From a virus (Duplodnaviria > Caudoviricetes): a DNA stretch of 64,000 bases. Shown here piece by piece: positions 28,245-33,974 of the stretch. The position numbers and the translations under genes are program-made. The stretch is from IMG/VR virus record IMGVR_UViG_3300031992_000072, positions 1-64,000 of that record; one strand, 5' to 3'. Positions within the stretch are counted from its first letter, which is position 1. Each line of letters starts with the position of its first letter. The notes below the pieces were generated by a model. It was not told the origin of the DNA. It saw only the letters and a list, made by a program, of their open reading frames with translations, and ran no database searches.

Positions 28245-28547
28245 TCACCCTTCTTTCCGTTTTCCATAAGCGCAGAACCAATCCGGTTCGTGGGAATTTC
28301 CGTCTATTCCGCAAACAACGTCTCCTGTTCGTTCCCAACATTTCTTATTACTGCAATCCTTGCACTGGACAATTTGTGGATGTTCTTTTAGAATCTCAAG
28401 GATTTTGCAAATATGTTTTGCGTTAATACCTATTACCTTCGTCACACTTGCTAATGCTTTTATGTCTTGTGTATTTTGATATGTTCCAAACGCAGAATAT
28501 ACAGACAAAACGGTGACTAATACAATCAAAATAACTACTGCTATCAT
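28245..28547 (-). CDS. membrane-anchored VQCKDC...WFCAYG family protein
   Basis: N-terminal hydrophobic helix plus shared C-terminal Cys motif. Confidence 0.6.
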   Translation of the reverse strand: MIAVVILIVLVTVLSVYSAFGTYQNTQDIKALASVTKVIGINAKHICKILEILKEHPQIVQCKDCSNKKCWERTGDVVCGIDGNSHEPDWFCAYGKRKEG

Positions 28548-28813
28548 TTACTTCATCCCATTTTCTTAAATATTAACATCAACGATAAACAAACAAATAT
28601 TAACGATAAAATATATCTAATATCTTTCAACACTGCAACAAGTTCATTCATTCTTGTTTACCGCCCATTTTTGTGAAATCCATGCCAATCATGATATCTG
28701 CCCATTTTTCTTTTGAATCGTGCTTTTTTATATGCTTTTCTTATTGGAACAACACCATTATTAGTTACAATATATAAAACTATTCTGTTCATTTCCATTT
28801 TACAAACTTTCCA

Positions 28814-29002
28814 TTAATTATATCCATGTTCAATCGCCCATTCGCTTTCGTGTGCAAGCTTTCCGTATTTATCGATGTAATCAGAGGCTTCTCCTCTTGT
28901 TTGCCCTTCAAACTTTGGCAATGGATATAGGCTATAATTCTGCATTTCGTCAATATGCTTTTTTTGCTTATCTGTTATCGGTCTTAATCTCCACGAATTC
29001 AT
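28814..29002 (-). CDS. hypothetical protein
   Basis: 62-aa ORF, common phage motif TDKQ...TRGEASDYID. Confidence 0.55.
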   Translation of the reverse strand: MNSWRLRPITDKQKKHIDEMQNYSLYPLPKFEGQTRGEASDYIDKYGKLAHESEWAIEHGYN

Positions 29003-29007
29003 TTTAC

Positions 29008-29268
29008 TTACTGGCCTTTCTTCGGTTTGATTCCGAAAACACAGTATCCATCTTCAATCCCCCAACCGTTCAAAACGTATGTGATTTCATATTCCTTTTT
29101 CATCAGCGGATGACTTACCATTTCGCATCCGTCTGAATCGTATAAAACGATAAACCTTACAGTATCACCTTTCTGATAACCCCTGTCATTCTTGCGAACC
29201 TCAAACGTTTTATCGCCACGGTTAACCGCATCAGCAAACGATTCTTTTATTTTTATTGCGTGTATCAT
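29008..29268 (-). CDS. ASCH/DUF3850-domain protein
   Basis: HAIKI..SFADAV..GDKTFEVRKNDRGYQKGD. Confidence 0.8.
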   Translation of the reverse strand: MIHAIKIKESFADAVNRGDKTFEVRKNDRGYQKGDTVRFIVLYDSDGCEMVSHPLMKKEYEITYVLNGWGIEDGYCVFGIKPKKGQ

Positions 29269-31150: not shown

Positions 31151-31549
31151 TTAATACGGAACATCGTCTTCGTCAGGAGCTTCAGTCATTTCGATACCAG
31201 GAGCAGTAGCCCCTTTGCCATCAGAAATAAACCTGACCTGTTCAGCACGAACTTCCATCACAGTGCGAAGATTATTGTTCTTGTCCACATAGTTATTTAG
31301 TACAACAGGACCGGAAACAAACACAGCACGGCCCTTCTTCAGAAATTTGGCACAAGTTTCGCCCAGTCCGCGCCAAGCATTAATACGGAAGAACTGTGTC
31401 TGTTTACGAACACCGTATCCTTCGTCTGCGGCAACAGTAAAATTGCATACTTTTGTTTTAACAATCTCTCCAGTTTCCTTATTCGGGTATTCCCGTTCAT
31501 TCAGAATCGGGTCTGCAGTAAGGTTTCCAAGAACATCCAACCTATACAT
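31151..31549 (-). CDS. ssb: SSB-like protein (second paralog)
   Basis: LGNLTADP...CNFTVAAD...FFRINAWR...KKGRAVFVSG, acidic DVPY tail. Confidence 0.82.
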   Translation of the reverse strand: MYRLDVLGNLTADPILNEREYPNKETGEIVKTKVCNFTVAADEGYGVRKQTQFFRINAWRGLGETCAKFLKKGRAVFVSGPVVLNNYVDKNNNLRTVMEVRAEQVRFISDGKGATAPGIEMTEAPDEDDVPY

Positions 31550-31866
31550 TTTTAGTCTCCTTTTCTTTTGTAAATTAATTTCTTTTGTCTGATGAGATTT
31601 ATAAATATACATATTGCTTTTTGGTTACAATATGAAATATTTTTGAAATTGTTTATTTTTATGCTATAAATGCAGTTTGTAATTCAAATGAAATTAAGTT
31701 ATTATTTGCTTTACGAATATGTTATGCAAGAATTACGTATAAAAATACACAAATCGTTATTTTGCTTGGTTTGTGTTGCTTAATATTATCTTTTGTCAAA
31801 TAGAATATTCATTCATTTTTCAAGAAAATTTATCTTCATCAAACTGCATTTATATAATACCACAAA

Positions 31867-32526
31867 TTAACCTTCGACCTTGACAATATGGTAACGACCA
31901 TATCCGGAAGTGCGACCAGACCCGATGCCACCGCCAAATCCGGCGAGATTTACAATATTCAGAATCTGATCACGGCTATAAACATGATCCATGTAATCAA
32001 TCTGGAACTTTGCTTTCCAGTTATGGAAGTGATTCAGATGTACAGTAACAGGCTTGCCCTTCTTCGGGCTCATCAGCCGCTTTTCAACACTCCAGCCTTC
32101 ATAATCAACAGGAATCAACCCATTAGAGCAGCTAACATTAATAGCGTTTTTGAGCTTCGTAGAATACTGTGCAATTTCATTGCGAACAATAGCATCGCCA
32201 AAGCTCTGCTGAAGACCAAAAGCCGTAATGCAGGGCTTATTGTTTTCACGAAGATTATTCAGCATTTCTTCGTTGCATTCAGTATATGTATCTTCGCATT
32301 CAAGAGGTTTCTGCCAGTGAATTGACGTAATAATATCTTCCCAAACGTTGGGTCTTTCGTCAATGCTTTCACGGTCATCAGCCAGAAGTTTCCGTTCGTT
32401 ACGAGCATTCATCTTATTAAGAATCAGATCGCTATCACCTTCGATAGTAACCTGCATATGCTTAACTTTAGCTTCGATGCTCATCAGTTCCACAGTGTTA
32501 TTGTCTTTAATGGTTGCCTTTTTCAT
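31867..32526 (-). CDS. putative RAMP/Cas7-like RNA-binding protein
   Basis: N-terminal VTIEGDSDLILNK strand and C-terminal G-rich loop AGFGGGIGSGRTSGYGRYHI resemble Csm3/Cmr4-type RAMPs. Confidence 0.6.
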   Translation of the reverse strand: MKKATIKDNNTVELMSIEAKVKHMQVTIEGDSDLILNKMNARNERKLLADDRESIDERPNVWEDIITSIHWQKPLECEDTYTECNEEMLNNLRENNKPCITAFGLQQSFGDAIVRNEIAQYSTKLKNAINVSCSNGLIPVDYEGWSVEKRLMSPKKGKPVTVHLNHFHNWKAKFQIDYMDHVYSRDQILNIVNLAGFGGGIGSGRTSGYGRYHIVKVEG

Positions 32527-32543
32527 TTTTAATTCCTTTCTTT

Positions 32544-33248
32544 TGTATTGTACTGTTGTGCGCTATTCTATTTTGTTGTAAGGTGTTGTTTTGAGCTATT
32601 TGCCAGCTCATAGGAGAACACACGTTCTCCTCGTATTATGGTATCGTTTGCTGCACTAAATTCTAATATTTTATTATATGCTGAGAGCTTATGCTCTCTT
32701 ATGAACTGGCAATTTATTCTGTCATGTTTTGTCGTATTATGATCTTTTGTGTACTTGCGCCATTGGCACAACAAGAGACTTATAATGCTTTACTGTCGTA
32801 TAGTATGGTATGCTGAATTATACTGAAGTTTACTTCAGAGAACTATAAGTCTCTGGTTGTACCAATGAAGCTGTCATATATTATTCTTAATTATCCTGTA
32901 TTATGCTTTCATGTCCTGATAAGGATGCAATAAATGTTATCTTATTTTGTCGTATGCTATATTAAAGTATGCTGTTATTAGCTGTGGTATATTTATGGAT
33001 GCTATTGCATCCTTGTCAAGACATGAAAACTGGCTGGTATTACAGAGAACTTCTCTTAATTAAGCCAACAAAATTATTAATATTTATTCTATGTTTAACT
33101 ATGCTGTTCTGTCATATCCTGCGCTATTCTTTATGCCATGAAATTGACTGGCACTACAGAGAACTTCTATACTATGGTGTTTTATAATATCGTAAATTCT
33201 CATAAGCTGTCCTATGCTTGAGAGCAGAAGCTCTCTATAGTACCAGCC
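32544..33248 (-). repeat. array of ~8 tracts with 5-nt periodicity (TRT-NN on plus, NN-AYA on minus) framed by long inverted repeats
   Basis: e.g. TAT AC TAT GG TGT TT TAT AA TAT CG TAA AT TCT CA TAA GC TGT CC TAT GC; stems 32601/32700, 32761/32845, 32910/33003 (21 of 23 bp), 33032/33232. Confidence 0.85.
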
Positions 33249-33256
33249 AAATTAAT

Positions 33257-33748
33257 TTAACTTGCCTGTTCCAGTTCCCGAATGGCTTTAAATACTGGTT
33301 CCAACTCTGTAAGAATCGAGTATTTGACCATAAACGCCTGAAGTTCTGATTTTGCCGTCATCAGAAGCTTTTCGTGAAGTGATGCATCCTGAACAATTAA
33401 TGTAATCGGACGATAACCAGTTTCTCCTTTAAGATTATGATACATTCTTAAAGGAACGCCAACCTTATCGGGTTTCTTTTCTTTATTCAGCCCAATCTCT
33501 ACAATATGCAAGTCGTGCATCACATCCGCAACCTGCTTTAGCCGATACTTTTCAGCAGCTTTTGTATCGTCCCATTCGATCAGTTTATGCATTTCTTTAT
33601 GCTCATCCCGTGCCATATCCAGAATTTCTTCTGTTTCAGGATGTTCACCAAGAGCATAAATTTCTTCTGCTACCTTTTGCGCATCAGCTTTCTTGCGAAA
33701 ACTCTCTGAACCAGGTCTCCAGGTCGCAATAAAATTGCATTCCTTCAT
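33257..33748 (-). CDS. conserved phage hypothetical protein (EWDD..AAEKYRL.Q motif), partner of the RAMP-like gene
   Basis: motif HKLIEWDDTKAAEKYRLKQ; sits directly upstream of the periodic array. Confidence 0.7.
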   Translation of the reverse strand: MKECNFIATWRPGSESFRKKADAQKVAEEIYALGEHPETEEILDMARDEHKEMHKLIEWDDTKAAEKYRLKQVADVMHDLHIVEIGLNKEKKPDKVGVPLRMYHNLKGETGYRPITLIVQDASLHEKLLMTAKSELQAFMVKYSILTELEPVFKAIRELEQAS

Positions 33749-33752
33749 AAAC

Positions 33753-33974
33753 TCACTCCATTCTGAAACTGTCTTCTCCGGGAATCAGGGCTAACGTAGA
33801 CCCATTATCCCACTTCATATGAATCTGTCCTGCATCATCAATATAATCAACCGTTCCTGCATCTCCATGCTTCAGTTTTGTATAAGAATCATTCATAGAA
33901 ATCAATACAAGCCTTGTGCCAGCAGGATATACTTTCTTAATTCTTTCTACTTCTCTTTCGGTCATTCCAAACAT
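33753..33974 (-). CDS. DUF4314-family protein
   Basis: YPAGTRLVLISMND...GDAGTVDYIDDAGQIHMKWDNGSTLALIPGEDSF. Confidence 0.85.
   Translation of the reverse strand: MFGMTEREVERIKKVYPAGTRLVLISMNDSYTKLKHGDAGTVDYIDDAGQIHMKWDNGSTLALIPGEDSFRME

Follow-up and report, generated by a model that had tools for sequence, protein, structure and literature searches.

VIPR (Viral Interference Programmable Repeat) systems were described in 2026 (bioRxiv 10.64898/2026.04.26.720920, 10.64898/2026.04.26.720927, 10.64898/2026.10.15.759431) and consist of a lone RAMP protein (Vipr), guide RNAs (vrRNAs) of 9-16 YNNGG (GGY/NN) units and accessory vap genes. The NN bases recognise double-stranded DNA with one base skipped per unit, and the targets lie on competing mobile elements (same preprints), the known target classes being satellite recombinases and lysogeny regulators. 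There are also reports of guides directed against rival VIPR systems, and of satellites that hijack a phage's Vipr with GGY guides of their own (VIPR preprints). The alternative units named are NNNGG, YNNNG and NNNNG (10.64898/2026.04.26.720920). In the Vipr of Escherichia phage SUSP1, a type II system, G1 and G2 of the scaffold are held by H17, D177, R138 and W178, and Y3 by R179 and its neighbours (VIPR structure preprint). Here we compare these systems with a locus in a 64 kb window (the whole stretch of DNA analysed) of the 80-kb virus record IMGVR_UViG_3300031992_000072 (Caudoviricetes), which is very probably a VIPR-type RNA-guided DNA-binding system of a gut/rumen Clostridia phage. A preliminary description of the window had pointed to such a phage system; the system is real and published (bioRxiv 10.64898/2026.04.26.720920), and the novelty given to the locus as a 'non-CRISPR' system was overstated, the class being already in print.

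The locus consisted of two genes, the array between them and a downstream inverted repeat:

33257..33748, minus strand: partner gene, 163 aa, vap-like accessory, upstream of the array
32542..33249, minus strand: guide-RNA array, eight A-Y-A-NN tracts (V1-V8) alternating with the arms of four long stems
31867..32526, minus strand: Vipr-like RAMP gene (vipr), 219 aa
31660..31859, minus strand: downstream inverted repeat with 20-nt arms, without a guide tract

The present results, obtained by computation, are the fold and SUSP1 Vipr homology of the 219-aa protein, the array with its conservation, the strand of the RNA and a gapped, in-frame target match. With these, the locus has the features by which VIPR is recognised, namely a stand-alone RAMP homologous to Vipr, a minimal virus-borne locus, pentamer arrays and, for one guide, the skip rule. 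The scaffold triplet, the stem architecture and the partner gene are not mentioned in the main text of the VIPR papers.

The 219-aa open reading frame encodes a glycine-rich C-terminal loop (G-loop) as previously described, and the RAMP-like character proposed for it was borne out by structure and sequence comparison. A sub-threshold match to Pfam RAMPs covered residues 142-212 (E 0.0048). In an AlphaFold2 model built from a 53-sequence alignment (predicted local distance difference test, pLDDT, 93.2) the protein is predicted to fold as a Cas7-type RAMP, and the leading Foldseek matches in the PDB were all Cas7-type (Cmr 6s6b_I at the top with E 1.8e-7, followed by chains of Csm3 and by type VII Cas7). 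The clear matches described from the Foldseek viral library (BFVD) were an uncharacterised virus protein (46% identity, NCBI virus record) and a phage 'RAMP superfamily protein'. A sequence search of the PDB and a tblastn search of named phages found nothing. At E <= 0.001, 2,203 homologues were detected in a 90%-clustered collection, falling into 156 clusters at 50% identity. The Vipr gene of SUSP1 (KT454805) was located at 28474-29061 on the minus strand, and its translation carries the residues of the structure paper exactly (H17, E71, M72, R138, C173, D177, W178, R179). An hhalign comparison of the family profile with SUSP1 Vipr gave a probability of 98.3% (E 1.3e-14) over the last 61 columns, the aligned part covering the thumb end, helix, G-loop and last strand (C-terminal half). 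Judged by sequence, the 219-aa protein is a homologue of the characterised SUSP1 Vipr.

The array at 32542-33249 was the most 5-nt-periodic stretch of the 64 kb. The lag-5 peak expected for 32544-33248 was present, with an autocorrelation of 0.366 at lag 5 and 0.409 at lag 10 compared to 0.22-0.33 at other lags, and the top 13 300-nt windows by lag-5 excess in the whole 64 kb all started at 32401-33101. On the minus (gene-sense) strand the array resolved into eight tracts of 6-11 A-Y-A-N-N units (TRT-NN on the plus strand); the number of tracts agreed with the preliminary count of about eight, but their length was shorter than the 9-13 pentamers given there. The tracts, in the order of the gene-sense strand, were as follows:

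33166..33215, minus strand: guide V1, 10 units, NN = gg gc tg at cg tt aa cc gt ga, enclosed by the stem 33226-33249 / 33141-33168
33073..33127, minus strand: guide V2, 11 units, linker between the 3' arm copies 33141-33168 and 33031-33054
32936..32990, minus strand: guide V3, 11 units, enclosed by the stem 33003-33028 / 32907-32932
32870..32914, minus strand: guide V4, 9 units, linker between stems
32787..32821, minus strand: guide V5, 6-7 units, enclosed by the stem 32839-32867 / 32761-32789
32713..32752, minus strand: guide V6, 8 units, linker
32635..32679, minus strand: guide V7, 9 units, enclosed by the stem 32673-32712 / 32600-32639
32542..32599, minus strand: guide V8, 9-11 units, linker and leader, in the vipr 5' leader

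All four long inverted repeats noted earlier (32601/32700, 32761/32845, 32910/33003, 33032/33232) were found, with arms of 24-40 nt at 32600-32639/32673-32712, 32761-32789/32839-32867, 32907-32932/33003-33028 (92% complementary) and 33031-33054/33226-33249, and they bound the tracts as stem-defined units. Each tract is followed by a stem arm; the arms are unlike each other and pair with sequence flanking the neighbouring guide, so that guides alternate between enclosed and linker positions, and no common tail was found. Stem sequence varies between the units, an argument for selection on the pairing. Compared to shuffled sequences, the array folded with a z of -11.0 on the minus strand and -7.9 on the plus strand. 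A search of the array against Rfam at permissive thresholds found no ribozyme or known RNA family, leaving processing of the hammerhead-interspersed kind unsupported. The arms 33031-33054 and 33141-33168 are 86% identical copies, both complementary to 33226-33249, and the first stem therefore has alternative 3' partners, enclosing either V1 alone or V1 and V2 together. V8 ends 16 nt before the vipr start codon, just 5' of the ribosome-binding site, and if Vipr coats V8, feedback on vipr translation is possible. On the other side of vipr, a stem at 31665/31840 with weaker periodicity had also been proposed. The stem is present (31660-31679/31840-31859, 20 nt, 90%), but the periodicity at 31613-31866 was rejected, with no AYA-NN tract and no lag-5 excess in that interval.

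The comparison of related loci drew on 80 from IMG/VR, 19 from genome assemblies and a number of metagenome contigs. About 100 of them share the layout of partner gene, A-[C/T/A]-A-NN array and Vipr-like gene, and the assemblies carrying relatives were mostly metagenome-assembled genomes (MAGs) of Clostridia (Ruminococcus, Oscillospiraceae, Lachnospiraceae, Blautia). A scan of all 80 IMG/VR loci and of two metagenome contigs placed nearly every high-information 5-nt window upstream of the gene, at <=1.2 kb. The de novo gene-sense consensus was A (1559/1856, 84%), then C/T/A (995/407/384; 54/22/21%), then A (1633/1856, 88%), followed by N and N. This makes the family triplet A-C-A, with perfect A-C-A runs of >=8 units in some loci, and agrees with the earlier claim of a different constant triplet, which is A-Y-A in the window. 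Family tracts were mostly 9-16 units long with a mode of 11, and alternation of enclosed and linker guides (the 'EfE…' pattern) was common. As the preliminary description had expected of homologous loci, these keep the periodic array while their NN dinucleotides differ; the NN of V1 are conserved in relatives whose proteins are 90% and 87% identical, and those of V7 are largely conserved in close relatives.

The partner gene, first noted for a WDD motif, is strictly linked to the system, with a homologue immediately upstream of the array and on the same strand in 97/102 related loci. The 163-aa protein had 252 homologues, none of them named, and no match in NCBIfam or PADLOC. Its AlphaFold2 model (pLDDT 93) gave weak winged-helix-like or helical-hairpin rows in Foldseek and VIA-align and no clear fold match. 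Comparison with the SUSP1 accessory protein vap1 gave an hhalign probability of 0.4%, and the two are not homologous. The name 'DUF4494' was an automatic Atlas look-alike that Pfam does not confirm, and it was rejected.

The scaffold differs from every G-containing unit named for VIPR: instead of GGY (or NNNGG, YNNNG or NNNNG) the gene-sense consensus is A-[C/T/A]-A. The residues with which SUSP1 Vipr reads G1 and G2 (H17, R138, D177, W178) are also absent from the 219-aa protein, which has S203, G204 and L164 at the positions of D177, W178 and R138 and N37 (placed by eye) in place of H17; R179 is kept as R205. A correspondence between G-loop and scaffold was seen in four cases:

SUSP1: G-loop D-W-R, scaffold GGY
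Distant relative L222: G-loop E-W-R, scaffold GGY
Family of the 219-aa protein: G-loop S-G-R, scaffold A-Y-A / A-C-A
Distant relative L224: G-loop T-Q-R, scaffold A-A-Y-like

From these four cases, covariation of scaffold and protein appears to be the best available rationale for the different triplet. The last of them is a metagenome contig (L224:783-1237, distant relative P0222) in which a T-Q-R Vipr-like protein is followed by gene-sense A-A-Y/A-A-A/C-A-A pentamer tracts, and its scaffold would be another G-free one.

Targets were sought by reading the NN series of each guide against DNA with one base skipped per unit. For V1, searched with 19 specified bases and one unit (cg) left half open, matches were found in at least 114 IMG/VR contigs representing 54 distinct DNA versions, all of them in frame with the skipped base at the wobble position. 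The reversed-order control gave 0 matches in IMG/VR, and the gapped NN matches in other phages that the preliminary description had anticipated are, for V1, far above chance. The V1 site encodes GAWI[C/R]FNPV[D/E], residues ~180-203 of a 660-750-aa protein with PriCT_2 and AAA_25 domains (PHROG 2597, 'DNA primase'), and the target loci were without a vipr or partner gene. At the half-open codon the targets carried TGY (68), AGR (24) or CGN (22); the 'cg' unit of V1 matches the CGN-Arg target versions at 20/20, and the 'ag' unit of the two closest relatives matches the AGR-Arg versions at 20/20. With <=1 mismatch, the V1 site was present in 9/151 genomes from the order to which a relative-carrying Ruminococcus MAG belongs, with 0 matches for the backwards control. 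In V1 the NN series is identical to the target's coding strand, so that a gene-sense guide would pair with the template DNA and not with the mRNA.

A second, independent match came from a guide of the related locus L022 (2264-2318; protein 53% identical), which matched at 21/22 by the 1-nt skip, in frame, in a Sak4-like AAA_24 gene (L212:1671-1703) at the motif [L/V]KEWAD..LFA; the rough chance expectation for such a match over all family guides was ~0.001-0.01. This gene belongs to the replication module (Sak4, helicase, primase) that V1 also hits, 3.3 kb upstream of the primase gene in elements of the same kind. Within the phage's own 80-kb genome, skips of 0, 1 or 2 produced nothing above background, and a skip of 3 found only the arrays themselves. 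V3 with <=3 mismatches gave 0 matches in 121 genomes. Family guides compared with related VIPR loci showed no excess over shuffles, with one borderline match. This was an 18/20 match between the L022:2374-2423 guide and L017:3052, inside the vipr gene of L017, and is about what chance predicts at this search size.

Strand-symmetric mutation predicts equal numbers of G·T and A·C at the isolated non-Watson-Crick positions of a stem. Tolerance of G·U pairs is confined to the RNA whose strand shows G·T. Across 101 distinct stems read in the gene-sense direction, G·T was found at 102 such positions compared to 21 for A·C, which points to a gene-sense RNA, A-Y-A-NN and not U-R-U-NN. V8 stops 16 nt short of the start codon, which leaves no space for a promoter and indicates that V8 belongs to the vipr leader and is transcribed in sense. 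The neighbouring genes all share the minus strand, and the GGY-NN tracts (vrRNAs) of SUSP1 lie on the gene-sense strand. On the G·U bias we infer that the guide RNA is the minus-strand A-Y-A-NN. The alternative, that guides are made from the plus strand as U-R-U-NN (UGU in the family), would resemble the published YNNNG variant, as U-G-U-N-N fits N-G-Y-N-N, and such a guide would be complementary to the primase gene's coding strand or to its mRNA. In favour of this alternative, the equivalent of SUSP1's pyrimidine-pocket R179 is retained as R205, folding of the plus strand is good too, and the V1 target match is strand-neutral and by itself cannot tell the transcribed strand. However, the stem bias, the lack of promoter room, the common strand of the neighbouring genes and the sense of the SUSP1 vrRNAs all favor the minus strand, the protein here lacks the residues holding G2 in SUSP1 (R138, W178), and the plus-strand alternative is improbable.

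Still less probable is that the periodic DNA acts as a DNA-level element (iterons, a replication origin beside the SSB gene or a platform bound by the partner protein) with the primase match due to chance. The array does lie in a replication-gene neighbourhood with SSB downstream, and 7/8 guides are without a target. However, SSB is linked to the system in just 6/102 loci, the closest relatives only, compared to the RAMP and partner genes, which are conserved with it; the stems show the G·U bias of RNA; the protein is homologous to the RNA-binding Vipr; and V1 is in frame in 54 DNA versions with none for the control. A third explanation accepts a VIPR system and holds that the locus is a plain member of the seven published types, with scaffold, stems and partner already in the supplementary figures (fig. 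S17, 'or a related consensus'; vap1-6) and nothing new. PSI-BLAST in the first paper collected 2,664 Vipr proteins and 667 typed loci, some with non-GGY repeats (10.64898/2026.04.26.720920), and the 46%-identical NCBI virus protein in BFVD places relatives within reach of that search. The units named in its text (NNNGG, YNNNG, NNNNG) all contain G, however, whereas A-C-A-N-N is G-free in every rotation. Neither 'AYA' nor 'ACA' occurs in the main text of the later VIPR papers, the supplements of the first paper lying outside this comparison. We regard this explanation as rather doubtful, though well ahead of the other two. Several findings nevertheless weigh against the VIPR-type reading that we prefer. 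Just one of the eight guides has a target, and its hits fall in one gene family and are not independent, the 114 contigs amounting to about one successful match. The exact 1-nt-skip patterns of V2, V3 and V7 gave 0 matches each in IMG/VR, and V2-V8 showed no excess over shuffles in the 114 target loci, which total 1.09 Mb. The units are degenerate in an AT-rich phage (several TTA, TAA and AGA), leaving guide boundaries approximate, and a promoter/terminator consensus scan was at shuffle level and uninformative. In orthologous family tracts the NN and scaffold position 2 change at similar rates, a comparison with too few clean pairs to separate the two.

For the VIPR-type system we propose the following course, each step of which is predicted, from transcription and cleavage by a host RNase to the formation of a filament, the binding of DNA and silencing. 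The partner gene, array and vipr would be transcribed as one minus-strand operon, a single transcript being suggested by the gap of only 8 nt between the partner stop codon and the first stem. Its leader would carry the eight guide tracts of 6-11 A-Y-A-N-N pentamers. The stems that enclose or separate them would be cut, most likely by a double-strand-specific RNase (most simply RNase III), releasing single guides and the vipr mRNA. One Vipr protomer may then cover each pentamer, with A-Y-A sequestered and the two N bases presented, and the NN series would read double-stranded DNA while passing over one base per unit, so that the RNA's 5-nt step would track the 3-nt codon step, with the skip falling at the wobble position. 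V1 is presumably aimed at the conserved primase-helicase motif of other temperate phages or prophages in the same host group, where binding would silence the primase-helicase gene and block the replication of the rival.

Compared to the type II VIPR of SUSP1, the locus shares a stand-alone ~200-aa Cas7-like RAMP with a G-loop, a phage-borne two-gene locus, gene-sense pentamer arrays of ~9-16 units with three fixed and two free bases, and a match by the one-base-skip rule that is in frame, skips the wobble base and falls in a competing mobile element's gene, with no self-target. It differs in the scaffold (A-Y-A, family A-C-A, as opposed to G-G-Y) and in the residues that correspond to H17, R138, D177 and W178, which are N, L, S and G here. 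The guides lie upstream, in the vipr leader, whereas those of SUSP1 are mostly downstream with promoters of their own; there is no shared 3' tail or pseudoknot, and long stems pair the flanks of neighbouring guides instead. The partner is unrelated to vap1 and stands upstream of the array, the hosts are Clostridia, and the target is a phage primase-helicase gene and not a satellite recombinase. Published variants with alternative repeats, or with staggered or hammerhead-interspersed arrays, likewise show that scaffold and architecture vary among Vipr clades, but the alternative repeats named all keep at least one G, whereas the scaffold here is G-free on the RNA strand, and unlike the hammerhead-interspersed arrays this one has no Rfam ribozyme, its units being bounded by long duplexes.

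The protein also resembles the Cas7 subunits of class 1 CRISPR systems (Csm3, Cmr4) in its RRM-based RAMP fold, thumb and glycine-rich loop (Foldseek E to 1.8e-7), and in the proposed binding of one protomer per fixed step of the guide RNA. Unlike those systems, the protein has a single RRM and the locus has no CRISPR repeats or other cas genes nearby; a repeat scan of 31550-33300 detected no CRISPR-type repeat-spacer array, and no cas neighbours were found at the locus. The step would be 5 nt with 2 pairing bases as opposed to 6 nt with 5 in class 1 Cas7, and the guides are hard-wired in the genome without an adaptation module.

VIPR has been presented as built on G-G-Y or other G-containing repeats, whereas the large clade found here (2,203 proteins at E <= 0.001, in phages of gut/rumen Clostridia) uses a G-free A-Y-A. 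A G-free scaffold together with replaced guanine-reading residues suggests that the scaffold is not fixed chemistry and co-evolves with the protein, and this covariation offers testable recognition rules and possible orthogonal tools. Callers based on GGY miss such systems, so searches must widen. With the decoded targets, the known VIPR target classes come to include rival phages' replication genes (primase-helicase, Sak4-like). We put forward, tentatively and at somewhat less than even chances, that the fixed triplet is a second, protein-specified code in which G-loop and thumb residues set the scaffold that is loaded, that Vipr clades are mutually orthogonal, and that guides are released from the vipr leader by duplex-specific cleavage of the stems. 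If so, scaffold switching could be an escape from satellites that hijack Vipr, orthogonal scaffolds would provide a set of programmable DNA binders without cross-talk, and cleavage of the duplexes between guides would be a processing route not described for VIPR.

The neighbours of the locus, apart from the 163-aa partner, were SSB, DUF4314 and small phage open reading frames. The SSB gene (31151-31552) lies downstream of vipr, past a 250-300-nt gap that holds the 20-nt inverted repeat. The DUF4314 gene (33753-33974; E 1.7e-30) is directly upstream of the partner gene, and homologues of it were also present in 4 of the primase-target loci.

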